Positions 10,302 through 58,006 of a stretch of DNA of 64,000 bases are shown here, in pieces. The DNA is from an uncultured Alphaproteobacteria bacterium (GTDB lineage Bacteria > Pseudomonadota > Alphaproteobacteria > MPNO01 > DASWLB01): contig CAVZIN010000003.1 in the NCBI GenBank assembly GCA_963775315.1, forward strand, positions 72,011 through 136,010. The letters run 5' to 3'. The translations under genes and the position numbers were made by a program. The notes beneath the pieces were generated by a model. The model saw nothing but the letters and a program-made list of their open reading frames with translations. It was not told the DNA's origin and made no database searches. Within the stretch, counting starts at the first letter, position 1, and each line of letters starts with the position of its first letter.

Positions 10302-10396
10302 CGAGGCGCCCGCGTCGGCCAGAGCCAGCGCGATCGTCCGGCCGAGATTCTGCGCGCTGCCGGTGACGATGGCGGCGCGGCCCTCGAGCTCGCGCG

Positions 10397-10903: not shown

Positions 10904-11058
10904 CGCGCTCCTCCGTCGCTTCGCATGGGCGGCAACGGCCGGAAGTCTAGCACCATCGGGCGCCTCGAACACAAGCGTGGATCGGCCGGAGCCTGGTCAC
11001 GGAACCCGCCGCCCGACAGCTCCGTTCGCCCATCGTATCGATGGCGAGGGAGAGGATC

Positions 11059-11349
11059 ATGGCCAGCCACGAGGCGCAGACGACGACCGACCACCAGACG
11101 ATCCGGCGCTGGGCCGAGGCGCGCGGCGGCAAGCCGGCGGCGGTTTCCGCGACGCACAAGGGCGACGACGCGGGCATCCTGCGGATCGATTTCGACGCGC
11201 CGGAGGAAGGGCTCGAGCCCATTTCCTGGGATGCGTTCTTCGAGAAGTTCGAGGAGAGCCGGCTCGCCCTCCTCTATCAGGACAAGACCCAGTCGGGCGA
11301 GACCAGCCGCTTCTTCAAGCTCGTCCGCCGCGACGACGCCAGCCATTAG
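11059..11349 (+). CDS. Small conserved hypothetical protein (~96 aa)
   Basis: ATG at 11059 is preceded by GGGAGAGGA. The composition is not Arg/Ala-biased: 'MASHEAQTTTDHQTIRRWAEARGGKPAAVSATHKGDDAGILRIDFDAPEEGLEPISWDAFFEKFEESRLALLYQDK...'. It converges on the MTase gene, and their stop codons overlap (TTAG). Confidence 0.55.
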   Translation: MASHEAQTTTDHQTIRRWAEARGGKPAAVSATHKGDDAGILRIDFDAPEEGLEPISWDAFFEKFEESRLALLYQDKTQSGETSRFFKLVRRDDASH

Positions 11350-14322: not shown

Positions 14323-15461
14323 CAGACGAGGCTCCCGGCAAGTACGGGCCGTGGTTCCGGCGCGCGCCCCAGCGCATTGAGAATGTCCATCAGCTCGTCC
14401 ACCCGGTGCGCGCACGTATGGCGCGCGCGGATGGTGCGAAGGCCGTTGGCGGCGAGCTGCGCCGCGAGCGCGTCGTCGGACGCGACGGCCTTGAGGTGCG
14501 CGGTCATTTCCGCGCCGTCGCGCGCGCGGAGATAGTCTTCGTGACCGAACAGCCCCTCGGCGTCGTCCCACGGCGCGGACACCAGCGGAATGCCGCAGGC
14601 CAGCGCCTCGAACATGCGGATGGTGGGGATGCCGGGCAGGGCGCGGGCGTAGGGCCGGCGCGGCACGTGCACCGTTACCCGGTGCGCGGCGAAGGCGTCG
14701 GGCACGCGATGGTTGGCGATCCAGCCTTCGTAGCCGATGCCGTGGTGGCGCAGCAGCTCGCGCGCGTGGCGCGGGTACCGCACGCCATGCACGCGTGCGG
14801 GCAGGCCCAGCGCATGCGCCGGCTCGACCAGGAAGGTGCGCAGCTCGCGGCTCCGCTCGCCGTCGCCCCAATTGCCGATCCAAATCAGACCGGCGCGCGC
14901 TTCCGGCTTCGGCGCGCCGGCGGGATCGGGGCGGAACACCGCCGTGTCGGCGGCCTCGTGCCAGGTCCAGGCGCGGCGGCCCCAGCCGCGAGCGCGGTAG
15001 GCCTCCGCCAGCACCGCGCCGAAGGCGAGCACGCCGTCGTAATCCTCGATGCCCATGGCGTCGAGCTCGTCCGGCGCCGTGAGGGCACGGTGGTGGGTGT
15101 CGTGGAACAGCAGGCGGAAGCGGCCGCCCGCGGCGCGTCGCCGCCCGATCGCCCGTGCCAGCGCGGGGTCGGTCCATTCGTGCACGATCACAAGCTCGGC
15201 GCCGTCGAGCGCGGCGTCGAGTTCGAGCGTCTCCGAGTCGTAGAGCCACGGGCGGAGATGGGGAAAGCGCAGCTCGACATCGGCAAGCGCCGCCGGACCC
15301 TGTTCCGCCAGCAGGTGCGTCCGGCTCCACCCGTCCTCCGGCTCGAACACCGCGAGATCGTGGCCGCGCCGCATCAGCTCGCCCGCGATGCCGCGCATGA
15401 AGTGGGCGTTGCCGTGGTTCCAGTCCGAGAGGATGGAATGGCAGAAGAGCGCGATCTTCAC
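14322..15461 (-). CDS. CgeB-like glycosyltransferase, paralog A
   Basis: '(V)KIALFCHSILSDWNHGNAHFMRGIAGEL...FEALACGIPLVSA'. 379 aa, GTG start with a GTGA overlap to the upstream gene. Confidence 0.85.
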   Translation of the reverse strand: MKIALFCHSILSDWNHGNAHFMRGIAGELMRRGHDLAVFEPEDGWSRTHLLAEQGPAALADVELRFPHLRPWLYDSETLELDAALDGAELVIVHEWTDPALARAIGRRRAAGGRFRLLFHDTHHRALTAPDELDAMGIEDYDGVLAFGAVLAEAYRARGWGRRAWTWHEAADTAVFRPDPAGAPKPEARAGLIWIGNWGDGERSRELRTFLVEPAHALGLPARVHGVRYPRHARELLRHHGIGYEGWIANHRVPDAFAAHRVTVHVPRRPYARALPGIPTIRMFEALACGIPLVSAPWDDAEGLFGHEDYLRARDGAEMTAHLKAVASDDALAAQLAANGLRTIRARHTCAHRVDELMDILNALGRAPEPRPVLAGSLV

Positions 15462-16591
15462 AGCGCGGGCTCCAGCCGCCGGGTACGGGCGCGCCCGCCG
15501 GTCAACGCCGCGTACGCGTCGCAATAGAGATCGACCATGCGTGGCGCCGAGAAGCGCCGCGCATGCAGCCGGGCGGCCTCGCCCAGCGCGCGGCAGCCAT
15601 CCTCGTCCGCCATCAGCCCGGAGAGGGCGCGGGCCAGGAGATCGGGCCGGGCTGGATCGACGAACATGGCCGCGCCGTCCCACAGCTCGCGGAGCGTTGG
15701 GATGTCGCCGAGCACCAGCGCCGCGCCCGCCATGGCCGCTTCGAGCACCGCCAGCCCGAACGGCTCGTAGCGCGCGGGGTGTGCGAAGATCGCCGCCTCG
15801 CCGAGCCAGCGCGCAAGTTCAGGCTCCGCGAGCCTCCCGAGCCAGGTGACGCTGTCCGGCGGCACGTCCCCTCCGCCGCCGTCGGGCGCGGCGACGTCGC
15901 CCGCCACCAGCACCGGCCAGGGCAGGTCGCATCCGGCCTCGGCCATTGCGCGGACGTTCTTCGCCTCGTCCCACAGGCGTCCGCAGCCGAACACGCAGCG
16001 CCGCTTCGGCAAGGGCGGGAAGCGCCGCCCGTCGCGCCCGTTCGGGATGACGGCACACCGTCCCGGTGCGCCGTAGATCGCCGCGATCTCGGCGAGGAAC
16101 GCGCGCGTCGGCGCGACCAGCAGCCCGGCGGCGGCAATTCCCTCGGCAACGCGGCTCCGGTAGATGTCCCATTCCGCTGGCGCGTCGCACCCGCGGCAGG
16201 CACGCCACCACGAGGCGACGCAGGAATGGGCCACCGCGACGGTCGGCGCGCGCCAGCCCAGCGCCGCATGAGCGTACCCGTTGAGATGCACCAGGTCGGG
16301 CCGCACGCGCCGCTCGAGCGCGAGCAGCCATTCGCCCTGGCGGAGCACGTCGCATTCGGCGCCCGGCATCCATTCGAGCCGCCCGCCCAGTGTCTCGACC
16401 ACGAGGCGCGGGATCGACTGCGCCTCGGCGCGCTGCGCCGCGCTGGGTGCCGGGCCGAGCGCGCAGAGCGTCACCTCGGTGCCTCGGGCGGCGAGGCCCC
16501 GCGCCAGCTCGATCGCGTAGGTCCAGACGCCGCCGACCGCGTCGGTGGTCATCAGCACGCGCCGCGGCGCATCGGCGACGGACGGCCTCAT
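15458..16591 (-). CDS. Family 4 (GT-B, RfaB-like) glycosyltransferase
   Basis: GT4-type C-terminal domain ('EPFGLAVLEAAMAGAALVLGDIP'). 377 aa, with an ATGA overlap to the upstream gene. Confidence 0.85.
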   Translation of the reverse strand: MRPSVADAPRRVLMTTDAVGGVWTYAIELARGLAARGTEVTLCALGPAPSAAQRAEAQSIPRLVVETLGGRLEWMPGAECDVLRQGEWLLALERRVRPDLVHLNGYAHAALGWRAPTVAVAHSCVASWWRACRGCDAPAEWDIYRSRVAEGIAAAGLLVAPTRAFLAEIAAIYGAPGRCAVIPNGRDGRRFPPLPKRRCVFGCGRLWDEAKNVRAMAEAGCDLPWPVLVAGDVAAPDGGGGDVPPDSVTWLGRLAEPELARWLGEAAIFAHPARYEPFGLAVLEAAMAGAALVLGDIPTLRELWDGAAMFVDPARPDLLARALSGLMADEDGCRALGEAARLHARRFSAPRMVDLYCDAYAALTGGRARTRRLEPAL

Positions 16592-17703
16592 GGCGCAGCG
16601 CGCTCCAAATCGGCGAGCGGCGCCGGCGCCTCGTCCTGAATGTCGCTAAAGGCGCCGAACCGGTCGCGATAGTAGTCGACCGCCCGCTCCCAGGCCCGCG
16701 CGTCGGGCTCGCCCCAGAGCCGCCGGTAGTCGGGCGTGCCGGGATAGGGGAACAGCGGCACCGGGTCGTTGGCCCAGATGCCATGGGCCCGCACCCGCTC
16801 GCGCCAAGCGGCGACCTCGCGCGAATCGTCCTCCGGCGTCAGGATCAGGTTCGCCTGCACGAAGGGCACGTGGCGCTTCGCCTCGATCAGCAGGCCGGTC
16901 AGCGCCTCGGTGTCCACGCGGCAGTCCTTGGACAGCCAGTCACGGCCGGCTTCGGTCAGGCTCTCGACGCCGGCCTCGATCGAGACGCACCCGGCGCGGC
17001 CGAGCAGCGCGATCGTGTCCGGCTTCCAGAGATCGAGCCGCGTCTGCACGCCGAACTTCAGCCCGCGCCCGACCAGCGCCTCCAGCAGCGGCCGGTTCGG
17101 CAAAAAGATTTCGTCGACGAAATAGACGTACTCGACGCCCTGGTTCTGCAGGCGCGCGATCTCGGCGTCGGTCCAGGCGAGCGGCGGCAAATCGACGAAT
17201 TTCGTCGCGCGCGGCCCGCCGCGCCGCCGGATCCGCCCGTCGCGCTTGAAGCAGATGCCTTGCACCTCGGCGTCGCCGCGGGCCAGCTCGGCCAGCGTCT
17301 CCTCGCACTCGCCCATCACCACGATGTCGGCGCCGAGCTTCGCGAGGGCCGGTTCGGGCGTGGTCGAGCCGTGCGGCCCGACGGCGACGGTGAGGCCGGC
17401 GACGTCGCGCACCGCCGCCAGCGTCGCCTGCGGCACGCGCAGCTCGGGCGGTGGGCAGCGCCAGAACAGATAGGTCGGTGCAGTGGTGACGACGGTCATT
17501 TCCGGCCGGAAGGTGGCGAGGCGGCGGGCGAGGGCGGCACCGTCGAGCCCTTCGGCATGGGCGTCGATCAGGGCGACCTCGTGGCCGTCGCGCTGCAGCA
17601 AGGCGCGGGCGCAGCCGAGCTCGAGCGGCAGATGGCGCTCGCGGCAGCCGAAATAGATGCTGCGCGCGAAGGTCCAGTCGGGATTGACCAGCGCGATCCT
17701 CAT
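16588..17703 (-). CDS. B12-binding-like / radical-SAM-like TIM-barrel protein lacking the CxxxCxxC motif
   Basis: N-terminal Rossmann-like B12-binding-type domain ('MRIALVNPDW...IVVMGECEE'), followed by radical-SAM-fold motifs ('YFVDEIF', 'GCVSIEAGVESL', 'LILTPEDD...LFPYPGTPDY'). No Cys triad is present. 371 aa, with an ATGA overlap to the upstream gene. Confidence 0.75.
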   Translation of the reverse strand: MRIALVNPDWTFARSIYFGCRERHLPLELGCARALLQRDGHEVALIDAHAEGLDGAALARRLATFRPEMTVVTTAPTYLFWRCPPPELRVPQATLAAVRDVAGLTVAVGPHGSTTPEPALAKLGADIVVMGECEETLAELARGDAEVQGICFKRDGRIRRRGGPRATKFVDLPPLAWTDAEIARLQNQGVEYVYFVDEIFLPNRPLLEALVGRGLKFGVQTRLDLWKPDTIALLGRAGCVSIEAGVESLTEAGRDWLSKDCRVDTEALTGLLIEAKRHVPFVQANLILTPEDDSREVAAWRERVRAHGIWANDPVPLFPYPGTPDYRRLWGEPDARAWERAVDYYRDRFGAFSDIQDEAPAPLADLERAAP

Positions 17704-19766
17704 GCGACCCGCCCCGTCGGCTCGGGCAGCGCCTCCGGCGTCGGTGCGCCGAGGGGCCCGGGCGCCGTCAGCGGCGCGGTGGCCAGAGGGAAGGCCGGCG
17801 CGCCGGTCAGCCAGGCGTGCAGCTTGGCGACGCCTTCGTGCGCCTTGACGTGCGGCCGCCAGCCCGTGGCCGCGCGGAACCGGCGGGTGTCCGAGGCGTA
17901 CCAGACCTGGTCGCCGGGCCGCCACGCGGCGTAGTCGATGTCCGGCGTGCGGCCGGTCAGCTCGCCGATCCAGCCGACGAGGTCGCGCAGGCTGATCGCG
18001 TTCTCCGGCCCGCCGCCGAGGTTGAATGCGCGTCCGGCGACTGCCTGCGTGTTCTTCAGCGCCAGCAAATAGGCCGCGACCACGTCGTCCGCGTACAGCA
18101 CGTCGCGCACCTGGCAGCCGTCGCCGTAGATGGTGATCGGCCGGCCGGCGAGCGCCGAAATCAGGAAATGCGCGACCCAGCCCTGGTCCTCCGTGCCGAA
18201 CTGGCGCGGGCCGTAGAGGCAGCTCATGCGGAACACGGTGGCGGGCACGCCGAACGTGCGCGCGTAATCCAGGATGTACTGGTCGGCGATGCCCTTGGAG
18301 CAGCCATAGGGCGTGCGCAGATCGAGCGCACGGCCCTCGCCGACGCCGTGGCGGGCGAGGTCCGGGTCGGTCGGCAGGTACCTGTCGCCGCGACGCGCGC
18401 TGGTTTCCGCGTCGAGCAGCGCGCCGTAGACCTTGTTGGTCGAGGCGAACAGGACGGGCGGCGGGCTCGGCCGGTGGCGCAGCGCCTCCAGAAGGTTGAG
18501 CGAGCCGCGCGCGTTCACCTCGAAATCGTCGATCGGCGCGGCGAGGCTCGTCGTCACCGCCACCTGGGCGGCGAGATGGACCACGGCCTTGGCGTCGCGC
18601 GCCGCCGCGCGGAGCGCGTAATAGTCGCGCACGTCGCCGACCTCGACCGCGATCCGCGAGGGGTAGCGCGCGCGCAGCCATTGCAGGTTCTCCTCGACCC
18701 GTGCGCGGGCGAGGCTGTCGAACACCACGACCTGCTCGCCCGTCTCGGCGAGGCGCGCGGCGATGTTGCTGCCGAGGAAACCGGCGCCGCCGGTCACCAG
18801 CACGGCGGGGCGGGCGCGGCGGACGTTCGCCGCCTTCACCTCGCGCGCGAGGCGCTTCGCGCCCGCGAGCCCGCCGGAGGCGAGGGCGCGGTGCACGAGC
18901 TTCGGCTGGCCGTCGGCACGCACGATCCCGGTGTGGTAGTGGCGCTCGTCGAAATGAAAGCCTTCCTGGCTTTCCAGCTCGGGATCGAGGTCCTGGTAGG
19001 AATACCAGTAGACGCGCTCGGCCGGGGCAGCGAGGGCGTCGAGGAACAAGGCGAGCTGGCGCCCTTCCTGGTGGCGCCAGGTGGAGTGGCCCGCCTCTGT
19101 GATCCACACCTCGGGCGTGCAGCCGTGCCGCGCCAGCACCTCGCGCACACTCTCGATCTCGGGCTCCCACCCCTGCCACTGGGCGTTCCAGGTTTCGGGG
19201 AAGCCGTGCACCCCGACCGCGTCGATATGGGCCATGACGCCGCGCCGGCACATCAGCGCCAGCCAGTTCGAATCGGTCGGGCACATGCCGCCCAGCACGG
19301 TGCGCTTGCCCCGCTCCTTCATCCAGTAGGCCGCGCTGCCGACCATCTCGGAGAAGGCACGCCACTCGGCGTCGAGGTGCCAGTTCCAGTCGTTGAGGTT
19401 GTTCGGTTCGTTCCAGAGCTCGACCCAGTCGAAATGACGGCCGTGGCGGCTGACGAACACGTCGAGGAAATCCGCGTAGGACTTCGGGTCGCGCGGCGGC
19501 GCGGTCGTGGTGCCGTCGAGGCTGAGAGACGGCGGGGTGTAGTGGAAGCAGGGCAGTACCTCGAGCGTGCGCGCCAGCTCGGGCAGCAGCCAGCCATACC
19601 ACGCTTCGCCGTCCGGCCGGTGCCAGTCGGCCCACGACACGCCGATGCGCACATGCCGCGCGCCGATGGCGGAAAGCCCGTCGATCATCCTTAAGGCGCG
19701 CTCTCTCTCGCCCGGCCGCAGCCATTCGACGACACCCCATGGGCGCTCGATGCGGGACCGCGCCAT
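17700..19766 (-). CDS. Fusion protein: clan GH-A glycoside-hydrolase TIM barrel (GH5/GH39-like) + NAD-dependent sugar epimerase/dehydratase
   Basis: N-terminal half carries 'VELWNEPNN' (acid/base NEP) and 'VWITEAGHS' (nucleophile TE). C-terminal half carries 'VLVTGGAGFLGSNIAARL', 'YGCSKGIADQY' (YxxxK) and 'YGDGCQVRDVLYADDV'. ATG at 19766 ('MARSRIERPW'). Confidence 0.85.
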   Translation of the reverse strand: MARSRIERPWGVVEWLRPGERERALRMIDGLSAIGARHVRIGVSWADWHRPDGEAWYGWLLPELARTLEVLPCFHYTPPSLSLDGTTTAPPRDPKSYADFLDVFVSRHGRHFDWVELWNEPNNLNDWNWHLDAEWRAFSEMVGSAAYWMKERGKRTVLGGMCPTDSNWLALMCRRGVMAHIDAVGVHGFPETWNAQWQGWEPEIESVREVLARHGCTPEVWITEAGHSTWRHQEGRQLALFLDALAAPAERVYWYSYQDLDPELESQEGFHFDERHYHTGIVRADGQPKLVHRALASGGLAGAKRLAREVKAANVRRARPAVLVTGGAGFLGSNIAARLAETGEQVVVFDSLARARVEENLQWLRARYPSRIAVEVGDVRDYYALRAAARDAKAVVHLAAQVAVTTSLAAPIDDFEVNARGSLNLLEALRHRPSPPPVLFASTNKVYGALLDAETSARRGDRYLPTDPDLARHGVGEGRALDLRTPYGCSKGIADQYILDYARTFGVPATVFRMSCLYGPRQFGTEDQGWVAHFLISALAGRPITIYGDGCQVRDVLYADDVVAAYLLALKNTQAVAGRAFNLGGGPENAISLRDLVGWIGELTGRTPDIDYAAWRPGDQVWYASDTRRFRAATGWRPHVKAHEGVAKLHAWLTGAPAFPLATAPLTAPGPLGAPTPEALPEPTGRVA

Positions 19767-20884
19767 CACGCGACCAGCCCCCGGCTGACCAGCTCCTCCG
19801 TCGCACTGTCGACGCGGTCGGTCGCGATCTGGTCGGCCAGCCATTCGACGAGGTCGGCGAGCCCGGCTTCGAGCGAGACGCGCGGGCGGTAGCCGAGCGC
19901 CTCGGCGGAAACGCTCACGTCGGCGAAGTTGTGGCGGATGTCGCCCGCGCGATAGCGCCCGGCGATCTCCGGCGCGATGTGCGGCTTGCCCATCAGCGCC
20001 GCCATCCGCCTGGCGATGGTGGCGATGGAATGGTCCTCGCCGCTACCGATGTTGAACGAGACGCCGCTCACCTCCGTCGCCTCCAGCGCCAGCCGGAAGG
20101 CGCGCCCCACGTCGCGCGCGTGGACGAAGTCGCGCCGCTGCTCGCCGTCCTCGAAGATCAGCGGCGCGCGCCCGTTCAGCAGGCGCGAGGCGAAGATGGC
20201 GAGCACGCCGGTATAGGGGTTGGAAAGTGCCTGGTTCCGCCCGTACACGTTGTAGAGGCGGAGCGCGACCGTGCCCATGCCGTAGGCTTGGCCGACCACG
20301 TGGCACATCTTCTCCTGCACGTACTTGCCGAGCGCGTAGACCGAGGCGAGGTCGGGCCGCTTGGTCTCCGGCGTCGGGATCGGAACGAGCGGCCGGCCTT
20401 GATCGTCGCGGAGCTCCCATTCGCCGCGATTGAGCTGTGCGGCACCGCGCGGGGCCGGCTCGTGGGGATTGCCGTCGGCGTCGCGGCAGAGCCCCTCGCC
20501 GTAGATGCTCATCGACGAGGCGATAACCATGCGCTCGACCGGCTGGCGCGCGATCTCCTGAAGAAGAATCGCAGTGCCGAGGTCGTTGACGGCGGTGTAG
20601 TCCGCAATCTGGTACATGCTCTGGCCGACGCCGACGCGCGCGGCAAGATGGATGACGGCGTCGGCGCGGGCGAGCGCGCGGGCGACGGCCTCGGCGTCGC
20701 GCACGTCGCCCGGGATCAGCTCCGCCTCGCGCGCCAGGTAGTCCGGCCGCGCCCGCGTCTCGCCGTGAATTTGTGGAAGAAGTGAGTCGAGTATGACGAC
20801 CTCGTGCCCGGCCGCCAGCCGCTCGTCAGTGATGTGTGTTCCGATGAAACCAGCGCCCCCCGTCACAAGCACTCGCTTCGGCAT
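19766..20884 (-). CDS. NAD-dependent epimerase/dehydratase (extended SDR), first gene of the operon
   Basis: 'MPKRVLVTGGAGFIGTHI', YxxxK 'YALGKY'. ATG at 20884 is preceded by GGGGAGAG. The track start (TTG at 20899) is less likely. Confidence 0.85.
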   Translation of the reverse strand: MPKRVLVTGGAGFIGTHITDERLAAGHEVVILDSLLPQIHGETRARPDYLAREAELIPGDVRDAEAVARALARADAVIHLAARVGVGQSMYQIADYTAVNDLGTAILLQEIARQPVERMVIASSMSIYGEGLCRDADGNPHEPAPRGAAQLNRGEWELRDDQGRPLVPIPTPETKRPDLASVYALGKYVQEKMCHVVGQAYGMGTVALRLYNVYGRNQALSNPYTGVLAIFASRLLNGRAPLIFEDGEQRRDFVHARDVGRAFRLALEATEVSGVSFNIGSGEDHSIATIARRMAALMGKPHIAPEIAGRYRAGDIRHNFADVSVSAEALGYRPRVSLEAGLADLVEWLADQIATDRVDSATEELVSRGLVA

Positions 20885-20977
20885 TCTCTCCCCTTCCAAA
20901 ACGCGTTGGGTACAAGTTCACGGTGAACGTAAGAATGTTGCATTCGTTCCGGCCGCGCGGAACGGGCGGAGCGGATG

Positions 20978-21913
20978 TCACGGACGCCCGCGCGGCGCAC
21001 CAATTCCACCGGCTTCGATAAAAATATGCCGCACGCTCGGATGCGATGTCCGGATGCGTTTTTCGATGCGCGCGACGGCGGCGACGACGGCCTCGCCGGT
21101 GAGGCCGGGACGGAAGCGCAGCTCCATGTTAAGCAGCACCTGGTCGGGACCGAGCTGCATGGTGAGCGGGGTTCGGGCGCTGGCCACCGCGGCATCCATG
21201 CGTGCGATACGGCAGGCGGCATGGACCAGCGCCGTGTCGGCGCGCTCGCCCATCAGGAGGGCGCGCGTCTCGATCACCAGGATCGTCGCGACGCCGATCA
21301 GGATCGCGCCGATCGCCAGCGAGGCGGCACCGTCGATCCACGGCGCGTCCAGCCGCTGCGACAGGTACACCCCGGCGAAGGCGGCGAAGATGCCGGCGAC
21401 CGCCGCCGTGTCCTCGGCGACCACGACGAAGACGGACGGGTCCTTGCTCGCGCGGAAGGTGCGGTAGAGCCCCTGGTCGCGGTCGCGCTTTTTCATCAGC
21501 TGTCGCAGCGCGATGGTGAGGGAGGTCGATTCCGCGCCCAGTGCGATGCCGAGCACCGCGTAATTCCACGACGGATCGGTCAGCGTCTCCGGTGTCATCA
21601 CGTGCCGGTAGCCCTCGAGCAGCGACAACCCTCCGCCGATGCCGAACAGCAGCATGGCGACCACCAGGCTCCAGAAATAGAGCTCCTTGCCGTAGCCGAA
21701 CGGGTGCACCGCGCTGGGCGGGCGGGCGCTCGCGCGCATGCCGACCAGCATCAGACATTCGTTCCCGGTATCGACAACCGAATGGAACGCCTCGGACAGC
21801 ATCGACGCGCTGCCGGTCATCCAGGCGGCGCCAAACTTCGCCAGCGCGATGATCATGTTCGCCCCGATCGCGGCGAATACCGCGACGCGGCCGCTCTGCG
21901 AACCGGAGGCCAT
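20978..21913 (-). CDS. Cation diffusion facilitator (CDF) family metal efflux transporter (CzcD/FieF-like)
   Basis: Six-TM CDF layout with the 'HSVVDTGNE' and 'DxxSS' region, and a C-terminal cytoplasmic domain. Confidence 0.85.
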   Translation of the reverse strand: MASGSQSGRVAVFAAIGANMIIALAKFGAAWMTGSASMLSEAFHSVVDTGNECLMLVGMRASARPPSAVHPFGYGKELYFWSLVVAMLLFGIGGGLSLLEGYRHVMTPETLTDPSWNYAVLGIALGAESTSLTIALRQLMKKRDRDQGLYRTFRASKDPSVFVVVAEDTAAVAGIFAAFAGVYLSQRLDAPWIDGAASLAIGAILIGVATILVIETRALLMGERADTALVHAACRIARMDAAVASARTPLTMQLGPDQVLLNMELRFRPGLTGEAVVAAVARIEKRIRTSHPSVRHIFIEAGGIGAPRGRP

Positions 21914-22062
21914 GACTAGCCTACGCCGGCAGGGCCGGCCGGTTCCGGTTTCCGCGACGCGCGCGTTCAGGCGGCCCGCGCCGCCGGCGATTCACCGCGA
22001 ACGCATTTCCGGCCGAACGATCCGGTGCCCGCCTCGTTGACCGAAGGTAACGAAACGAGCGC

Positions 22063-23290
22063 ATGTCCGAACTCAATCTCGTTCTCGCCGTGCTCGGCGG
22101 GGTGACGCTGGTCCTCAGCCTCAGCGTCGACTACGTGCGCGGCCGGCTGCTGCCGCTGTCGGAGCCGCTGCTCGCCACCCTGGCCGGCGTCGCCGCCGGG
22201 CCGGTCGGGCTCGGCTGGATCGCGCTCGACCACTGGGGTCGCCGCGCACGCTGCTCGAGGAGGTGGCGCGGGTCATCGTGGCGCTCGCCGTGATGGGCGC
22301 GGCGCTTCGCCTACCGCCCGCCTATTTCCGCCGCCAGTGGCGGGCGATGGCGGTCGCGCTCGGTCCGGTGATGATGGTCGGCGCCGTGGTGGCCGGCATC
22401 GCCGGCTGGAAGATCCTCGGCGTGCCGTTCTGGCAGGGGGCGCTGATCGGCGCGATCCTCACCCCGACCGACCCGGTGGTGGCTGGTGCGATCGTCGCCG
22501 GCCCGCTCGCCGGGGAAACGTTGCCGACGCGCCTCCGGCGCCTGATCTCGGGCGAGTCGGGCGCCAACGACGGCATCGCCTACCCCATCGTGTTCCTGCC
22601 CGTGCTCATGCTGGTGCATCCGGCGAACGAGGCGCTCGGGCTCTGGGTCGGCGACCGGGTGGTGTGGGCGACGCTTGGTGGGGCGGCGCTCGGCGCGGCG
22701 GCGGGCTACGTCGCGGGGCGGGCGCAGATCCTCGCCGAATCGCACGGCTTCGCCTCCGGCCACGCGCTGGTGACCGGCGTCACCGCGTTCGGGCTCGCGC
22801 TGCTCGGGCTGCTCGGGCTCGCCGGCGCCGACGGAGTGCTCGGCGTGTTCGTCGCGGGGCGCCTGTTCGGCCACGTGGTCGAGACCGAACGGGTGACAGA
22901 GCAGGGCGAGCTGCAGGAGATCATCCGCTGGCTGTTCACCATCCCGAATTTCGTGCTGTTCGGCGCCGCGCTGCCCTGGGCGGGCTGGCACGCGCTCGGT
23001 TGGCCTGGGGTTGGCCTCGCCGTCGCGGTGCTGCTGCTCCGCCGCGTCCCGGTGATCCTGGCTGCGCGGCGCAGCCTGCCGCTCGACCGACCGGCCGACC
23101 TCCTGTTCTACGCCTGGTTCGGTCCGCTCGGCGTCGCCTCGATCTTCTACGCGACGCTCGCGACACGGCTCACCGGGCTCGACGTGGTGTGGCAGGCGTC
23201 GAGCCTCGTCGTCGCGCTCTCGATCCTGGTGCATGGCGCGACGGCGACGCCGTTCCTCCAGCTCTACGCCCGCAAGGTTCCCCGCGAACT
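22063..23290 (+). pseudogene. CPA1 (NhaP-type) Na+/H+ antiporter, frameshifted
   Basis: The N-terminus ('MSELNLVLAVLGG...GWIALDHWG') lies in frame 1, and the remainder ('PRTLLEEVARVIVALAVMGAALRL...') lies in frame 3 from ~22239. This is an apparent 1-nt deletion in the GGGG run at 22235-22238. There is no stop codon before the topoisomerase ORF. Confidence 0.6.
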
Positions 23291-23363
23291 CCGGAACGGA
23301 GGAAGGCGCCGGCCGTTGAGAGCCTGCGGATCATCGAGTGTCTGGCGTGGTGCGAGTGGTGGC

Positions 23364-24695
23364 ATGACGGTGGCGCGGGCGAGAGGCGGATTGCGGCAGG
23401 TTGGGCCCGAGGCGCTTGTGTTGCGGCGCCGCCGCGCCGGGCGCGGGTTCGTCTATCTCGACGAGAAGGGCCGCCAGGTGCGCGACCGCGCGACCCTCGC
23501 CCGCATCCGGAGCCTCGCCGTGCCGCCCGCCTACGAGGACGTGCAGATCGCGCGCGACGCCGACGCCCACCTGCAGGCCGTCGGGCGCGACGCGGCGGGG
23601 CGCGTCCAGTACCGCTATCACCCCGCCTGGACCGAGGAGCGCGAGGCGCGCAAGGTCGAGCGGCTGGGCGCGCTTGCCGCTGCCCTGCCGCACCTCCGCC
23701 GCAGCGTCGCCCGCGACCTCGCACGGCCCGAGCTGTGCCGTCGCCGGGTCCTCGCCGCCGTGATCTCGCTGATCGACAAGACCCACGTCCGCATCGGGTG
23801 CGAGGACTACGTCCATACCGGGCGGAGCCGCGGCGCGGCGACGCTCCTCAAGCGCAACGTGCGGGTCGCTGGCGACCGGGTAGCACTCGACTTCCGCGGC
23901 AAGGGCGGGCGGGCGATCGAGTGCGCGGTGCGCGCGCCGGCGCTCGCCCGCACGGTCCGCGCGCTCAAGCGCCAGCCGGGACCGCGCCTGTTCCGCTTTC
24001 GCGGCGAGGACGGCAGGCTGCACAACCTGACCGCCGCCGACGCCAACGCCTATCTGCAAGAGGTGACGGGCGAGGGGGTGACGGCGAAGGACTTCCGCAC
24101 GCTCGCGGCGACCGCGACGGCGGCCGAGCGGCTCGGCGCGCTCGAGCCGGGCCCCAGCGCCACCGCGCGGCGGCGCCAGATCAACGGCGTGATGCGCGAG
24201 ATCGCCGAGATGCTGGCCAACACCCCCGCCGTCACGCGTAAGAGCTACGTCCACCGCCGGCTGGTCGACGCTTTCGAGCGGGGCACGCTTGCCTCGCTCG
24301 TTGCCGGCTGCGACCGGCCGCGCGGCCTCGCCTGTGGCGAGGCGGTGGTCGCCGCCCTGTTCTCGCCGACGGGCGGGACTGACCGCCCCGGAACCCGTTC
24401 CTGCCGCGCACGTTGGTGGGGCGATCCGGGTTGCTGGAAGGGAACGAGCCATGCCCGCGAAGTCGAAGAAGCAGCAGATGGCCGCGGGAGCGGCGCTCTC
24501 GGCCAAGCGCGGCGAGCGCAAGAAGTCGAGCCTCCGCGGCGCCTCCGAAGGGATGGTCGAATCGATGAGCGAGAAGGAGCTCGAGCGCATGGCGAGCACC
24601 AAGCGCAAGGGAAAGCCGACGACCGCGAACAAGACGTCGAGCGCGAAGTCGACGTCCTCGAAGAAGAAATAGCCGGCCTCAGATCTCCTTCATGA
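23364..24695 (+). CDS. DNA topoisomerase IB (poxvirus/eukaryote-like TopIB)
   Basis: 'GFVYLDEKGRQVRD...IRSLAVPPAY...LQAVGRDAAGRVQYRYH...TAKDFRTLAAT...NTPAVTRKSYVHRRL' includes the catalytic Tyr context SYVH. Its ATG is at 23364. The homologous part should end near ~24390, but the frame has no stop until 24695, so the 3' end is uncertain. Confidence 0.6.
   Translation: MTVARARGGLRQVGPEALVLRRRRAGRGFVYLDEKGRQVRDRATLARIRSLAVPPAYEDVQIARDADAHLQAVGRDAAGRVQYRYHPAWTEEREARKVERLGALAAALPHLRRSVARDLARPELCRRRVLAAVISLIDKTHVRIGCEDYVHTGRSRGAATLLKRNVRVAGDRVALDFRGKGGRAIECAVRAPALARTVRALKRQPGPRLFRFRGEDGRLHNLTAADANAYLQEVTGEGVTAKDFRTLAATATAAERLGALEPGPSATARRRQINGVMREIAEMLANTPAVTRKSYVHRRLVDAFERGTLASLVAGCDRPRGLACGEAVVAALFSPTGGTDRPGTRSCRARWWGDPGCWKGTSHAREVEEAADGRGSGALGQARRAQEVEPPRRLRRDGRIDEREGARAHGEHQAQGKADDREQDVEREVDVLEEEIAGLRSPS
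24451..24672 (+). CDS. DUF3008-family small basic protein
   Basis: 'MPAKSKKQQMAAGAALSAKRGE...SEKELERMASTKRKG' matches the characteristic DUF3008 start. GGAAGGGAA lies upstream. Confidence 0.8.
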   Translation: MPAKSKKQQMAAGAALSAKRGERKKSSLRGASEGMVESMSEKELERMASTKRKGKPTTANKTSSAKSTSSKKK

Positions 24696-25575
24696 TCTGG
24701 GCGTAGGAGAGGAGCGCGAACAGCGCGGTGCCGCCCACCACGTTGCCGGCGAGCACGGGGGCGGTGAAGGCCCACAGCATATGGCCGAGCGCGAGCTCGC
24801 CGTTCACCACCAGCAGAAACGCTTCCACGCTGCCGGCCACGATGTGGGCGAAGCCTGCCGCCGCGATCAGATAGGTGATCACGGTGACGACGTGGAACTG
24901 GGTCTCGCGCGCGCTCGGGATCAGCCACACCATGGTCGCGATCAGGAATCCGGCCGCGATGGCCCGGAAGAACATGCTTGGCCAGTCGTGCGCCATGCCG
25001 TGGCGGCTGATCTCCAGCATGCCGGCCTTGAGTTCGGGCGAGACGACCGGGGTGAAGGTAATGAAGCAGGCCGCGACCAGCGTGCCCGTCATGTTGGCGA
25101 GGAAAACGATGGTCCACATGCGGCCGAGCTTGCCGACGTTGGTCCAGGTGAAGTCGGCCATCACCGGCAGCACGACGGTCACCGTGTTCTCGGTGAAAAG
25201 CTGCTGGCGGCTCAGCACCACGATCAGGAAGCCGACCGAATAGCCGAGGCTCGATACGCCTCGTTCCCACGGCGCGTCGGGCAGGTAGCTCCGCAGCACC
25301 GCCTGGGCGAGCAGCGAGAAGCTGATGGACAGCCCGGCGGCGACGCCGGACCACCAGAGCGAGGTCGCGGGGCGCTGGATCTCCTCGTCGCCATGGCGGC
25401 GGACGATTTCGTAGATGACCGGCGTGCGCGGCGCCGAAAGCTCGTCGATCTCCTCGAGCTCCTGCTCGGTGATGGGCGAGCCCTCGACCGGCCGCTCCGC
25501 GCCGCGTTCCGCGTCGCCGTTCCCGGCACCGCGCTCCTTCGCCGGCCGCCGCGACAATTCGAAGCCTTCCGCCAA
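24679..25575 (-). CDS. Formate/nitrite transporter (FNT) family channel
   Basis: FNT fold with 'QQLFTENT' and multiple TM segments. It has an N-terminal cytoplasmic extension of about 70 aa. Confidence 0.8.
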   Translation of the reverse strand: MAEGFELSRRPAKERGAGNGDAERGAERPVEGSPITEQELEEIDELSAPRTPVIYEIVRRHGDEEIQRPATSLWWSGVAAGLSISFSLLAQAVLRSYLPDAPWERGVSSLGYSVGFLIVVLSRQQLFTENTVTVVLPVMADFTWTNVGKLGRMWTIVFLANMTGTLVAACFITFTPVVSPELKAGMLEISRHGMAHDWPSMFFRAIAAGFLIATMVWLIPSARETQFHVVTVITYLIAAAGFAHIVAGSVEAFLLVVNGELALGHMLWAFTAPVLAGNVVGGTALFALLSYAQIMKEI

Positions 25576-25587
25576 CTCAGTCGCGGC

Positions 25588-26067
25588 TCACGCCGGTTCG
25601 CGCTCGCGCACCGGCGGGGCGTGGAGGGCCGCCTTGCCGTCGGTCGCGACCAGCCGCCGCGCGAGCGCCTCGACCGCGCTCGTCACCGTCTCGACCCCGC
25701 GCCGCCCGTCGGCCGCGATCAGCAGCAGCCGCGGCGCGCCCCCGCCGAGCTCGTGGACCAGTTCCAGCATGGCGCGCGGATCGAGGCCGGGCGCGCGCGG
25801 CGCCGGCCGTCCGGGACGTGGCGGCAGCGCCGCCTCGGTGACCGCGAGGGGATCGGCCGGCGTGTCGCGGGTCGTGCCGTGGACCAGCACGACCGCGTCG
25901 TACCCGTCCGCGGCGGCATAGGCCAGGTCAACCTCGCGCACGCCGAAATCGACCACCTCCACGCCTTGCGGCTGGGGGCGGCGGGCAAGCCGGCGCGCGA
26001 CCGCGACGCCAAACGCCTCGTCGCCGCGCGGCGGCTCGGCAATACCGGTGATCAGGATGCGGCACAT
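25588..26067 (-). CDS. Hydrogenase maturation protease-like protein (HyaD/HybD/HycI superfamily)
   Basis: 'MCRILITGIAEPPRGDEAFGVAVARRL...GVEVVDFGV' resembles the HybD N-terminus (GxxxxxDE(A)xG), though the second metal ligand appears substituted. The ATG has a GAGGGA SD upstream. Confidence 0.55.
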   Translation of the reverse strand: MCRILITGIAEPPRGDEAFGVAVARRLARRPQPQGVEVVDFGVREVDLAYAAADGYDAVVLVHGTTRDTPADPLAVTEAALPPRPGRPAPRAPGLDPRAMLELVHELGGGAPRLLLIAADGRRGVETVTSAVEALARRLVATDGKAALHAPPVREREPA

Positions 26068-26173
26068 CGGGTCCCTCGCTGAGTACGGACCCTGCATGCT
26101 CCGCCGGCCGGCGGGAAGCGGCACTAACCTTGGCTAAGCGGGCGCCGCCGGCACGCGCCGGCGGCGCCGTCGC

Positions 26174-27052
26174 CTACGAAAACAGCTCGCTGTGGCCGGC
26201 GTGGTCGTGGTCGAGCGCGACGCGCAGCTTGTCGAGCGCCTTGCCTTCGATCTGGCGGATGCGCTCCTTGGTGACGCCGAAGCTCGCGCCGATCTCGGCG
26301 AGAGTCGTGCGACCGTCGCCCAGGAAGCGCGCCGCGATGATCTGGCGCTCGCGCGGGGTGAGCGAGTCGAGCGCCTCGTTGAGCCAGCGCGAGCGCACGC
26401 TGCGGTCGTGCCGGTCGGTCACGACCTCTTCCGGGCTCGGCCCGTCGTCGGCCAGGAAGTCCTGCAGCTCGTCCGTGTCCTCGTCGCCGATCGAGGCGTT
26501 GAGCGAGCGGTCGGGCCGCGACAGGTGTGCCTCCATCCGCTCGACCGCCGCGAGCGGCACGCCGAGCGCCTGGGCGATCGACTGGCGCTGCTCGTCCGTC
26601 ATCGAGGTGGCCGTGGCGCCGCCCAGCTTGGCGCGCAGCCGGCGCAGGTTGAAGAACAGGCTCTTCTGCGCGGGCGTCGTGCCGATGCGGACGATCGAGG
26701 CGTTGCGCACGATGTATTCCTGGATCGCCGCCATGATCCACCAGGTGGCGTAGGTCGAGAAGCGGACCTCGCGCTCCGGGTCGAACCGGTTGGCGGCTTC
26801 CATCAGCCCGACATTGCCTTCCTGGATCAGGTCGTTCAGCGGCAGGCCATAGCCGCGGAACCGGCCGGCGATCCGCACCACGAGGCGGATGTGGCTGGTG
26901 ATGATCTCGTGCAGGGCCTTCTGGTCGCGCTCGTCGCGCCACCGGCGGGCGAGATCGACCTCGTGCTCGCGCTCCAGGAGGGGCGCGTCCATCGCCTGCG
27001 AGATGTAGCGCCGATCGTTGCGGTCGGGTGTTCCGGGGTTCGCATATGCCAT
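26174..27052 (-). CDS. rpoH: RNA polymerase sigma-32 factor RpoH
   Basis: Sigma-70 regions 2-4 plus the RpoH box 'QKSLFFNLRRLRAK'. Confidence 0.9.
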   Translation of the reverse strand: MAYANPGTPDRNDRRYISQAMDAPLLEREHEVDLARRWRDERDQKALHEIITSHIRLVVRIAGRFRGYGLPLNDLIQEGNVGLMEAANRFDPEREVRFSTYATWWIMAAIQEYIVRNASIVRIGTTPAQKSLFFNLRRLRAKLGGATATSMTDEQRQSIAQALGVPLAAVERMEAHLSRPDRSLNASIGDEDTDELQDFLADDGPSPEEVVTDRHDRSVRSRWLNEALDSLTPRERQIIAARFLGDGRTTLAEIGASFGVTKERIRQIEGKALDKLRVALDHDHAGHSELFS

Positions 27053-27209
27053 TTGCAGTACTCCGTCCCGGGGCTGGCGTCCGGGGACCTGAGGCGGCGC
27101 GTGCGCCGCACCATTTGCTATCGAGTCGATAATATAATTTGACCCCGCCCCGTTTGCAACCAGTTACCCATGCGCTATATCGCTCCGATACCAAAGGAGG
27201 AAGCACCGC

Positions 27210-27788
27210 TTGGCCAACTCGCGACACGTGGCGGATATGCTCGACCGGCTGGCCCGGATCGCGCACGGCGCCCAGTTCTGCGCGGGGCTCAACCCGGCCC
27301 AGTGGGAGGCGCTGCGCTTCCTCGCACGCGCAAACCGCTATTCCCGCTCGCCCGGCGCCATCGCCGACTATCTCGGCGCCACGCGAGGCACCATCTCCCA
27401 GACGCTTATTGCCTTGGAATCGAAGGGTTATATCCGGCGCAGCCGGTGCTCGGCCGACAAGCGCGGGGTCGACGTGGCGCTGACCGAGGCGGGGCGCGCG
27501 GTGCTTTGCCAGGACCCGCTCACCGTGCTCGGTGCTTCGGTGGCGGCGCTCGGCGAGGAGGAACGCGGCGTGCTCTCGCGCGTGATCGACCGGGTGTTCG
27601 AGCAGGTCCAGCAGGCCAAGGGGATTTGCGCCTTCGGCCGCTGCCGCGACTGCTGCCACCTGAAGCCGGGCGAGGGCGAAACGGCCAAGATGGAAGCCAC
27701 CGCCCCCGGCGCCTGCCGCTGCGGCGTCACCGGCGATTCGCTGAAATCCGACGAACTCAACCAGATCTGCGTCGATTTCCGGCCCTGA
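27210..27788 (+). CDS. MarR-family transcriptional regulator with C-terminal cysteine-rich extension
   Basis: MarR winged helix ('LNPAQWEALRFL...GTISQTLIALESKGYIRRSRCSADKRGVDVALTEAG'). The tail 'CAFGRCRDCCHLKPG...ACRCGV' carries 7 Cys in about 35 aa. Confidence 0.85.
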   Translation: MANSRHVADMLDRLARIAHGAQFCAGLNPAQWEALRFLARANRYSRSPGAIADYLGATRGTISQTLIALESKGYIRRSRCSADKRGVDVALTEAGRAVLCQDPLTVLGASVAALGEEERGVLSRVIDRVFEQVQQAKGICAFGRCRDCCHLKPGEGETAKMEATAPGACRCGVTGDSLKSDELNQICVDFRP

Positions 27789-27917
27789 CGCCGGCCCGGC
27801 CGATCTTCGCGGTATCATAATACCGCGCCCTTAATCCCCTGCCGTACAATGCATTTTTACGGTTGACCTGCGCGTGCGGCGTGGCATATTCCGCCGTCGC
27901 CGAAAGGACCCTGAACG

Positions 27918-28382
27918 ATGAAAACCTATTCCGCCCGGGCACAGGACGTGACCCGCAAATGGGTGGTGATCGACGCCGACGGGCTGGTGCTCGGGCGTCT
28001 CGCCAGCCTGGTCGCCATGCGCCTCCGGGGCAAGCACAAGCCGATCTTCACGCCGCACGTCGATTGCGGCGACAACGTGATTATCGTCAACGCCGAGAAG
28101 GTGCGGCTGACCGGCCACAAGTACGAGGACAAGGTCTTCTACTGGCACACCGGCCATCCCGGCGGCATCAAGGGCCGCACCGCCCGCGCGACGCTGGAGG
28201 GGGCGCACCCCGACCGGCTGATCACCAAGGCGGTGGAGCGCATGGTGCCGCGCAACAATCTGGGCCGCGACGTGATGCGCAAGCTGCACGTCTATGCCGG
28301 TCCGAGCCATCCGCACGAGGCCCAGAAGCCCGAGCCTCTCGACATCGGCGCGATGAACCGCAAGAACAGAAGGAGCGCCTGA
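27918..28382 (+). CDS. rplM: 50S ribosomal protein L13
   Basis: '[30 protein letters not shown]...' is a canonical L13. Confidence 0.95.
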
Positions 28383-28384
28383 GC

Positions 28385-28828
28385 ATGGCCACCGAATTCG
28401 GCGCCGCCGCCGCGCCCCTGCACGAGCGGAAGGTCGACGGCCAGGGCCGCGCCTACGCGACCGGCCGCCGCAAGGACGCGGTCGCGCGCGTCTGGGTCAT
28501 GCCCGGCAAGGGCAAGATCACCGTCAACGGGCGCGAGAGCAACGTGTACTTCGCCCGCCCGACCCTGCGGATGCTGATCAACCAGCCGTTCCTGGTGGTC
28601 AACCGCGACAGCCAGTACGACGTGTACTGCACCGTCACCGGCGGCGGCCTCTCGGGCCAGGCCGGCGCGGTGCGCCACGGCATCTCGCGCGCGCTCACGC
28701 ACCACGATCCGGCGCTCCGGCCGATCCTCAAGAAGGCCGGATTCCTGACCCGCGACCCGCGCGTGGTCGAGCGCAAGAAGTACGGCAAGCCGAAGGCGCG
28801 ACGCAGCTTCCAGTTCTCCAAGCGCTGA
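28385..28828 (+). CDS. rpsI: 30S ribosomal protein S9
   Basis: '...[25 protein letters not shown]...[16 protein letters not shown]'. AGAAGGAG SD upstream, 2 nt after the rplM stop. Confidence 0.95.
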
Positions 28829-28908
28829 CGCGCGACGCCTTTCCGTGTTCGAACGGGCGTCCCGCTTCGGCGGGGCGCCCGTTTCATTTCCGGCCTCGAT
28901 TCCTTATT

Positions 28909-29973
28909 GTGGACGCCATCATGGCCACCAAGCCCAACACCATCCGGACCGCCATTCTCGGCGCCAGCGGCTATACCGGCGCCGAGCTGGTGCGCCTGCT
29001 GCTGCACCACCCGTCGGTCGAGCTCTCGGCGTTGACGGCGGACCGCCACGCCGGCAAGCCCTACGGCGCCGTCTTCCCGCACCTCGGCGACCGGGGATTG
29101 CCCGACCTCGTGAAGATCGACGCCGTCGACTATTCCGGCATCGACCTGGTGTTCTGCTGCCTCCCGCATGGCGAGACGCAGCGCGTGATCGCCGCGCTGC
29201 CGGGCCATCTCCGCGTCATCGACCTGTCGGCGGATTTCCGCCTGGCCGATCTGGCCGCCTACGCCGAATGGTACGGCCACGATCATCACGCGCCCGAGCT
29301 GCAGAAGACCGCCGTCTATGGCGTGACGGAGCTCGCGCGCGAGGCGGTGAAAAGCGCGCGGCTGGTCGCCAACCCTGGCTGCTACCCGACCTCGGCAATC
29401 CTGCCGCTCTTCCCGCTGATCGAGGCGGGCGCGGTCGAAACCGGCGAGATCATCGTCGATTCCAAGTCCGGCATGACCGGCGCCGGCCGCGCGGCCAAGG
29501 AGGAGATGCTGTTCTCCGAGGTGTCCGAGGGCATCAACGCCTACGGCATCGCGCGCCACCGCCACACGCCGGAGATCGAGCAGGAGCTGGGCCGTGCCGC
29601 GGGCGCGGCGGTGCGGGTCGCGTTCACCCCGCACCTCATGCCGATGAACCGCGGGATCCTCTCCACCATCTATGTGCGGCTCGCCAACGGCGCCGACGCC
29701 AGGGCGCTGCGCGTGACCCTCGCCAAGCGCTACGCGGGCGAGCCCTTCGTGCGGCTCGTGCCCGAGGGGATGGCGCCGGCGACGCGCCACGTGCGCGGCT
29801 CCAACCACTGCCTGATCGGGGTGTTCGCCGATCGGCTGCCCGGCCGCGCCATCCTGGTTTCGGTCATCGACAATCTGGTCAAGGGCGCGTCGGGCCAGGC
29901 GATCCAGAACATGAACGCGATGTACGCCCTGCCCGAGACCACCGCGCTGCAGCAGGAGCCTTTGTTCCCGTGA
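28909..29973 (+). CDS. argC: N-acetyl-gamma-glutamyl-phosphate reductase
   Basis: 'AILGASGYTGAELVRLL...NPGCYPTS...' is ArgC with the active-site Cys. Confidence 0.95.
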   Translation: MDAIMATKPNTIRTAILGASGYTGAELVRLLLHHPSVELSALTADRHAGKPYGAVFPHLGDRGLPDLVKIDAVDYSGIDLVFCCLPHGETQRVIAALPGHLRVIDLSADFRLADLAAYAEWYGHDHHAPELQKTAVYGVTELAREAVKSARLVANPGCYPTSAILPLFPLIEAGAVETGEIIVDSKSGMTGAGRAAKEEMLFSEVSEGINAYGIARHRHTPEIEQELGRAAGAAVRVAFTPHLMPMNRGILSTIYVRLANGADARALRVTLAKRYAGEPFVRLVPEGMAPATRHVRGSNHCLIGVFADRLPGRAILVSVIDNLVKGASGQAIQNMNAMYALPETTALQQEPLFP

Positions 29974-30509
29974 CCGGCTTGATCCTGCCCTATGGCAACC
30001 ACACGCCGCTGATCCACAAGACCGCTTTCGTCGCGCCGAACGCGACCGTCATCGGCGACGTCGAGATGGCCGAGGATGCGAGCCTCTGGTTCGGCTGCAT
30101 CGTGCGCGGCGACGACGAGCCGATCCGCATCGGCGCGCGCTCGAACATCCAGGACGGCTCGATCGTCCACGTCTCGTCGGGCGTCCAGGGCACCTATATC
30201 GGCGCCGACGTGACCGTGGGCCACATGGTGCTGCTGCACGCCTGCACCCTGCAGGACGGATCGTTCGTCGGGATGGGCGCGACGCTCCTCGACGAATGCG
30301 TGGTCGAAACCGGCGCGATGGTGGCGGCGGGCTCCCTCGTGACGCCCGGCAAGATCGTCAAGGCAGGCGAGATGTGGGCCGGGCGCCCGGCCCGCAAGAT
30401 GCGCGACATGGGCCCCGACGAGATCGCCTACGGGAGGGAGATCGTCGCCCACTACGTCAAGCGCGGGCGCGAATACACCGACATCCTGGCGCGGCGAGCC
30501 AAGGGCTGA
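29970..30509 (+). CDS. Gamma-class carbonic anhydrase family / hexapeptide-repeat protein (PaaY/YrdA-like)
   Basis: Left-handed beta-helix repeats ('IGDVEMAEDASLWFGCIVRGD...IGARSNIQDGSIVHV'). GTG start overlaps the argC stop (GTGA). Confidence 0.8.
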   Translation: MTGLILPYGNHTPLIHKTAFVAPNATVIGDVEMAEDASLWFGCIVRGDDEPIRIGARSNIQDGSIVHVSSGVQGTYIGADVTVGHMVLLHACTLQDGSFVGMGATLLDECVVETGAMVAAGSLVTPGKIVKAGEMWAGRPARKMRDMGPDEIAYGREIVAHYVKRGREYTDILARRAKG

Positions 30510-37746: not shown

Positions 37747-37912
37747 GACCTCACCGTGCGATGGGAACGGGTTCTCTGCACGATATGGCACGAGCGGGGC
37801 CGGATCGGGAGTCCGTATCTCGCGGCGCGACGGCGTGCCGCCACATTCCGGAACCTCCGCGCGATCTCGCCCGTTTCATCTTTGTCCATTGGGACAAAGG
37901 GACGCAAAGCGA

Positions 37913-56143: not shown

Positions 56144-58006
<1,863 letters not shown>

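Follow-up and report, generated by a model that had tools for sequence, protein, structure and literature searches.

The locus described here lies in a 64-kb window of alphaproteobacterial DNA (the whole stretch that was analysed; positions are coordinates of this window, and comparison loci and proteins are coded L0xx and P0xxx, respectively) and consists of a CPA1/NhaP-type antiporter gene, a gene for a topoisomerase IB (topIB, product TopIB) and a DUF3008 gene, which follow one another on the plus strand between a cation-efflux (CDF) gene and a formate/nitrite-transporter (FNT) gene, both recognised by Pfam and each on the minus strand. GC content is about 70% in the window and 73-74% around the locus. 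The list of open reading frames (ORFs) contains a 76-aa ORF in frame 1 (22063-22293) and an 810-aa ORF in frame 3 (22263-24695), the second of which matches three Pfam domains: Na_H_Exchanger (aa 5-333, profile 50-374/375), Top1B_N_bact (aa 395-443) and Topoisom_I (aa 457-661). A preliminary description of this DNA had reported an antiporter that switches frame, an open frame 3 that runs on through a complete TopIB to 24695, and an out-of-frame overlap with the DUF3008 gene, all of which we find at the positions it gave. A six-state frame-plot of GC content at third codon positions (GC3) passes from frame 1 to frame 3 at 22233/22234 and keeps the frame 3 coding signal until 24362.

The N-terminal segment of the antiporter, codons 1 to ~59 (...ALDHWG; 22063-22238, frame 1), aligns with the N-termini of 59 homologs and of the ortholog in L018, a locus of the closest relative. 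The remainder (22239-23272, frame 3) holds the transmembrane core and the ANDG motif, matches PF00999 (5.7e-31, profile 50-374/375) and loses homology to the L018 ortholog after 23272 (...PFLQLYAR); NCBIfam agrees with a CPA1 antiporter (TIGR00844-like). The -1 frame change falls at a run of four Gs (22235-22238), where the homologs and L018 predict one extra base (WG-S/D-P), and alignment with the L018 ortholog opens a 1-nt gap at ~22242. At the shift site homologs read WG-[D/S/H]-P...LE(E/Q), with WGSPRGLLEQ in the counterpart P0003, and the window reads ...DHWG in frame 1 followed by G-SPRTLLEEVARV in frame 3 (similar to P0003: G-SPRTLLEE). The simplest reconstruction is TGG GGN TCG, with one G lost from the run 22235-22238. 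The closest antiporter in protein searches is P0005 (80% identity; all others <=50%). The window gene is 79% identical to the L018 ortholog and ~45-50% identical, over 93-99% of length, to 410-430-aa members of the CPA1/NhaP type (PF00999), with which it shares the ANDG motif but from which it differs in being split over two frames at codon 60 and in lacking an acidic C-terminal tail and a stop of its own. Its reading frame is thus interrupted by the -1 shift (22235-22242), and its tail and stop are replaced by other DNA.

TopIB begins at ATG 23364, which matches the start of the closest TopIB, P0121 (78% identity, 338 aa; all others <=75%), and its conserved core of 333 codons extends to 24362. 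The core contains PF21338 (Top1B_N_bact; 2.2e-21, profile 1-49/49) and PF01028 (Topoisom_I; 1.1e-25, profile 5-202/228), the same two-domain architecture as in Deinococcus radiodurans TopIB (2F4Q/3M4A), with which residues 23-307 align at E = 3.7e-49 (2F4Q). The catalytic R/K/R/N/Y residues are aligned between the two proteins, as R143 (HVRIG), K180 (FRGKGG), R245 (KDFRT), N286 (ANTPAV) and Y295 (KSYVH) in the window and, in Deinococcus numbering, R137, K174, R239, N280 and Y289. Alphaproteobacterial TopIBs are 57-78% identical to the window protein; the best named matches for TopIB, and for the ThiC encoded elsewhere in the window, come from Oceanibaculum, Azospirillum, Stellaceae and Caldovatus and so support an alphaproteobacterial source for the DNA, and protein searches with the antiporter and TopIB returned nothing closer than 78-80% identity. 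The enzyme had been called sporadic in bacteria, an impression at odds with the 3,911 proteins of E <= 1e-3 among 8,000 candidates examined. By these matches the window protein belongs to the bacterial poxvirus-like TopIB family and, the assembled C-terminal end apart, is typical of it.

That end is anomalous. The conserved core finishes with ...ALF (24354-24362); relatives have a conserved ...A(A/V)LF and a stop 1-25 residues later, at an expected size of ~310-400 aa. As assembled, the window TopIB continues 111 residues past ...ALF to 24695 and measures 443 aa from ATG 23364, and so differs from known TopIBs in having no in-frame stop after ...ALF, a tail present in no homolog, and a position in frame behind an antiporter remnant. 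The frame break and missing stop of the antiporter, and the absence of a nearby in-frame TopIB stop, had all been described correctly. The TopIB stop had been expected near ~24390, and comparison with L016, the locus carrying the closest TopIB relative, points instead to TGA 24380-24382: L016 reads CTGTTC + 15 nt + TGA + CCGC...CCCCTGGAACCCG, and the window CTGTTC + 17 nt + TGA (24380-24382) + CCGCCCCGGAACCCG. To judge from this alignment, the ancestral stop is retained one base out of frame, in frame 2, at the end of a variable tail (24363-24382) that includes the G-runs 24371-24373 and 24375-24377; one G added to either run yields ...ALFSPTGGD*, a protein of 339 aa (P0121, 338 aa). The frame-3 run-on of 105 codons beyond it (24383-24695) has no homolog, crosses a second promoter motif and overlaps, out of frame, the 73-aa DUF3008 gene (PF11450; 24451-24672, frame 1; profile 1-56/57, 3.7e-27), the ortholog of L018 6794-6997.

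The run-ons themselves had been listed as anomalies, and this part of the preliminary description falls away. At the local composition one stop is expected per ~62 codons, and the probability of meeting none is 0.62 over the 30-codon spacer between antiporter and TopIB and 0.18 over the 105 codons 3' of TopIB; such long stop-free run-ons are to be expected at 73% GC and are not improbable. What is truly anomalous is a single-base frame problem at each of two sites, together with the loss of the antiporter 3' end. The presence of both genes in one frame with no stop between them would also suit a natural, functional fusion of antiporter and TopIB, or a TopIB extended at its C-terminus by a long domain with a function. 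We regard either as highly improbable, given that an in-frame arrangement free of stops has a chance probability of ~0.2, that this architecture or tail occurs in none of the 120 best TopIB matches (306-405 aa) or the antiporter matches (253-454 aa; full-length 375-454), and that the linker and tail, both Arg/Gly-rich, come from translating promoter and leader DNA and a gene in the wrong frame. The public gene calls of the source contig include the 76-aa antiporter fragment, FNT, CDF and the sigma factor, but not the exact DUF3008 product; the run-on ORF probably masked DUF3008 during gene calling. Exact public look-ups of the 810-aa ORF and of the ThiC product returned no record.

The origin of the missing antiporter 3' end becomes apparent on comparison with the closest relative (~80% nucleotide identity to the window), an ENA assembly that holds the closest relatives of both the antiporter and TopIB on different contigs, L018 (ERZ25039483 contig_3786) and L016. 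Gene order in L018 is CDF(-), antiporter, a 31-bp spacer, DUF3008, FNT(-), a 173-aa ORF, a sigma factor, MarR, rplM and rpsI, with no TopIB. By blastn, L018 4416-6683 corresponds to window 20993-23272 and L018 6793-12762 to window 24450-30352, and the 110 bp between them in L018 (antiporter tail, stop and DUF3008 promoter) are matched by 1,177 bp in the window. The TopIB locus of L016 (6029-6999) aligns with window 23392-24362 at 80%, and homology to L016 extends beyond the coding region on the left (23307-23335; 0/300 shuffles reach the score) and on the right (24383-24414; 1/300). These alignments bound the replacing block at 23273-24449 as a maximum, this being the segment absent from syntenic L018, and at 23307-24414 (L016-homologous) as a minimum. 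Because the L018 antiporter ends in an acidic tail (...YARATVTAEGDDDGNGADAAEPPGTAAR*) like that of distant homologs, the L018 state is ancestral and the window state derived. As shown by this comparison, a block of 1.1-1.2 kb (~23273-24449) has replaced the antiporter's last ~26 codons and stop. Loss of stop codons by point decay, as first proposed, finds no support in either gene: the antiporter tail and stop were removed by the TopIB block, and the TopIB stop is present, out of frame.

Synonymous divergence (dS) between the window and L016 topIB is 0.58, matching that of the syntenic flanks (0.45-0.58), which argues that topIB is a resident of the clade that was relocated or duplicated and not a fresh foreign import. 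No transposase, terminal inverted repeats or target-site duplication were found at the junctions, and the block does not resemble a transposon, insertion sequence or integron cassette, having no junction repeats and CDF, antiporter, DUF3008 and FNT genes as neighbours. None of 15 TopIB loci from GTDB genomes has an antiporter, DUF3008, FNT or CDF gene nearby; the next-closest TopIBs (74-75% identity) all lie in other contexts, with LysR and ABC permease genes or unknown genes, and an outgroup antiporter context (P0003) is uninformative, with no DUF3008 nearby. A contig-level assembly source and a relative that has no TopIB at this site could also be read as an assembly chimera, with the TopIB segment misplaced between antiporter and DUF3008. 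We consider such an artefact very improbable: the flanks are in correct order and orientation over distances of more than 2 kb (left) and 6 kb (right), and a 1.15-kb piece lying exactly between adjacent genes, with promoters in functional positions, is unlike a mis-join. A second, larger difference in content separates the window from its relative some distance away, where ~10 kb in the window (10943-20993; 70-74% GC, glycosyltransferase and epimerase/dehydratase genes, a content typical of a polysaccharide-synthesis cluster) stand opposite 1 kb in L018 (3377-4416) that holds a single unannotated gene of 325 aa.

Both ends of the block carry the motif of the alphaproteobacterial general-stress sigma factor EcfG, whose consensus is GGAAC-N17-20-GTT (PMC6599016). 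In the same study, 'Topoisomerase IB' (#1831) of Sphingomonas melonis Fr1 ranks with the genes that depend most strongly on EcfG, and a motif of this kind lies 24 nt from its coding sequence (PMC6599016). The window topIB is likewise preceded by an EcfG-type motif, GGAAC-N16-CGTT (23293-23317, plus strand), 46 nt before its ATG; it differs from the S. melonis gene in that the putative promoter lies inside the run-on frame of the gene upstream, and an out-of-frame TGA (23317-23319) overlaps the -10 element. GGAAC-N16/17-CGTT occurs upstream of TopIB in the window, L016, L019 and L020/L021, and the motif precedes TopIB in six other contexts (L002 from Oceanibaculum pacificum, L006, L008, L016, L019 and L020); in L002, L006 and L008 it is an exact match and usually the sole one in ~9 kb. 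This conservation predicts that TopIB has its own promoter, and the earlier question of whether one lies within 23290-23363 is answered in silico by the motif at 23293-23317. No sigma-70 promoters or intrinsic terminators were found within 21800-24900.

The window as a whole contains seven GGAAC-N16/17-CGTT motifs where 1.1 are expected (0/100 shuffles reach seven), the excess is specific to spacings 16 and 17, and 7/7 stand in correct orientation about 30-45 nt before an ATG with a ribosome-binding site. Besides the two at the block, these are 11001-11026(+), 20926-20950(-), 37850-37875(+), 41464-41489(-) and 62027-62051(-), candidate promoters of a general-stress regulon; one of the five precedes an epimerase gene (19766-20899). 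The second motif of the block, again GGAAC-N16-CGTT (24390-24414, plus strand), is 36 nt before the DUF3008 ATG, and its -35 side is homologous to the motif found 3' of TopIB in L016, which there precedes an 81-aa ORF in a locus that also has a luciferase-like gene and a molybdopterin oxidoreductase gene. In L018 the native DUF3008 motif lies within the final codons of the antiporter gene, which takes its stop from the CGTTGA of this motif. As the stretch with this native motif has been replaced and the block's motif now lies upstream, DUF3008 is still preceded by the same type of promoter.

The same promoter type (GGAAC...CGTT) is therefore present at both ends of the block and at its target, which suggests short-homology-assisted illegitimate recombination, although the junctions are too diverged to demonstrate it. 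Relocations by illegitimate or short-homology recombination that create read-through ORFs are known from high-GC genomes, and here too a single gene with its regulatory flanks appears to have moved with no transposase or repeats; what sets this case apart is the one promoter type shared by block ends and target, which may have had a guiding or stabilising role. Two more specific models were tried and rejected. Self-insertion by TopIB at CCCTT could point to one AAGGG near the right junction, but the window has 101 CCCTT (~1 per 1.3 kb of window, both strands counted). A chimeric right promoter, with its -35 side from an L016-like and its -10 side and leader from an L018-like sequence, fits in that the -35 side is L016-like, but the similarity of the leader to L018 is too weak (the blastn alignment starts at 24450).

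The antiporter had been described as decaying, which the sequence comparisons do not support. Its dN/dS against the L018 ortholog is 0.30, within the 0.17-0.43 of neighbouring genes, and among 145 columns that are conserved across 59 homologs, 5 deviate privately in the window gene and 4 in the L018 antiporter. With no sign of relaxed selection, the frameshift must be either recent or a consensus error; the antiporter, on this measure, shows no decay, and its frameshift would be very recent or not real. The L018 antiporter is also split, at another place (L018 5967), among single-base insertions that include 2905 (a cupin-SDR fusion) and 11006-11811 (ribosomal protein S9 fragmented). These breaks look like assembly errors, and since the L018 assembly is error-prone its split antiporter gives no evidence of parallel decay. 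A long-standing cluster of decaying pseudogenes, with antiporter and TopIB both dying and their stops lost by point mutation, would account for three anomalies within 2.6 kb, yet it is very unlikely: TopIB too evolves like the intact neighbours (dN/dS 0.26), the private deviations are equal, GC3 still gives an undamaged coding signal, TopIB retains every catalytic residue and its full Pfam domains, and the stops are, respectively, replaced (antiporter) and merely out of frame (TopIB).

Whether the two single-base G-run differences are mutations or consensus errors is a separate matter, on which we lean slightly towards mutation. No other frameshift was found in the window by frame-plot, gene map, Pfam coverage or inspection of low-GC ORFs. 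Wherever else the frame-plot changes frame, a stop codon stands at the same place, ORF lengths in the gene map are ordinary, the lower-GC stretches hold long ORFs, and 9 of the 10 large genes checked show complete or near-complete Pfam coverage (AcrB of 1034 aa, profile 18-1020/1021; PepN, ThiC, DctM and others), the tenth being a 178-aa ORF with no Pfam match. The genes with the two frame problems are the ones adjoining the insertion. The alternative of true mutation or assembly error offered in the preliminary description thus survives in part: for both single-base problems error is a somewhat less likely reading than mutation, and a low-quality stretch of assembly finds no support.

Several points weigh against a rearrangement accompanied by real lesions. 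Both lesions consist of one missing G in a G-run, which is typical of long-read consensus errors, and the source is a 188.5-kb contig of which the sequencing technology is not known. In the related assembly, indels of 1 nt clearly affect rpsI, the antiporter and the cupin/SDR pair. Divergence of the antiporter is not raised, so that as a pseudogene it could only be very young. The left junction can be located no more precisely than 23273-23306, the comparison is made with one close relative, and EcfG dependence of the motifs is deduced from a consensus and another species.

Several of these points would suit an alternative that we hold to be possible on a tentative footing, in which the insertion is real and both frame problems are homopolymer consensus errors, so that the antiporter would continue in frame through a 30-codon linker into TopIB (773 codons), with TopIB also made separately as a 339-aa protein from the internal promoter. 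One G restored at 22238 and one at 24377, both in G-runs, gives exactly this ORF and a TopIB the size of P0121; conservation of the antiporter equals that of the neighbouring genes, several 1-nt indels occur in the related assembly, which is from similar sources, and assembly errors tend to cluster near strain-variable structural variants. Against it, some 50 kb of coding DNA in the window reveal no further frameshift, two such errors within 2.3 kb beside an independent structural anomaly would be a coincidence of ~0.2-4% under a uniform error rate, and the outcome is an odd membrane-protein/topoisomerase read-through that selection would be expected to remove. Repair of both G-runs in silico also bears on the earlier expectation that a corrected sequence would show a single-frame antiporter with its own stop and a TopIB stop near 24390. 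A single frame and a stop at 24380 are indeed recovered, but the antiporter is still without a stop: its frame crosses a 30-codon linker derived from promoter and leader DNA, enters TopIB and closes at the TopIB TGA after 773 codons; TGA 23317-23319 is in frame 1, and reaching it needs a further -1/+2 change.

The explanation we consider probable, on the strength of these alignments, is a rearrangement that set a topIB block with its own stress-type promoter onto the 3' end of the antiporter and left a long stop-free frame, an ordinary event and not the product of long decay. A block of 1.1-1.2 kb made up of an EcfG-type promoter, topIB and a second EcfG-type promoter was, as the comparison shows, relocated or duplicated within the lineage, replacing the antiporter's last ~26 codons and stop together with the native DUF3008 promoter. 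Somewhere in the final 17 nt, close to the right junction or directly at it, an indel would have put the TopIB TGA out of frame and produced the unconserved 111-residue tail. The 810-codon frame would have arisen incidentally, through stops that were lost or fell out of frame in DNA of 73% GC, and is probably no fusion gene. Loss of one G at codon 60 would silence the antiporter, making it a very recent pseudogene, non-functional as assembled, and as this frameshift ends translation at 22293 no antiporter-TopIB read-through product would be made. topIB would be transcribed under stress by sigma EcfG from 23293-23317 and translated from ATG 23364, and DUF3008 would now be served by the promoter at 24390-24414 that travelled behind topIB.

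Some further features of the window lie away from the locus. A cupin-like ORF (10397-10972; region 10370-10500 on the minus strand, L018 2770-2935) ends ...EVAA-TGA inside GCC-TGA-CGC, and the SDR downstream of it (TGSAQNLG motif) begins in an overlapping frame at CTG (CTGA), with no ATG, GTG or TTG before the Rossmann motif. Conservation of the overlap in L018 suggests a CTG start with termination-reinitiation coupling, or another non-canonical start. A search against Rfam returned only a TPP riboswitch (RF00059, 57.1 bits; 55865-56018) upstream of thiC (56159-58006), far from the TopIB locus and in the window's only low-GC (55%) kilobase. The intergenic segments 43846-43988 and 54738-54769 share GC-rich sequences of ~30-150 nt with L016 2523-2970 in both orientations (short segments 89-95%, the longest 72%), probably a REP-like family of dispersed repeats.

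The link between TopIB and the EcfG regulon is already documented in S. melonis, and what the locus shows is a rearrangement of an ordinary kind, with one or two single-base defects beside it. Something less ordinary is doubtful and speculative: EcfG promoters might act as portable short-homology sites for promoter-flanked cassettes, here one that moved topIB between two promoters and kept DUF3008 under the same sigma factor, or, if the G-run differences are errors, a membrane-anchored antiporter-TopIB might exist beside free TopIB. For annotation, the 810-codon ORF should not be entered as a fusion protein. For the family, the contexts compared here indicate that an EcfG-type promoter usually stands upstream of alphaproteobacterial TopIB and stays with the gene on moving, which extends the single experimental report from S. 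melonis.

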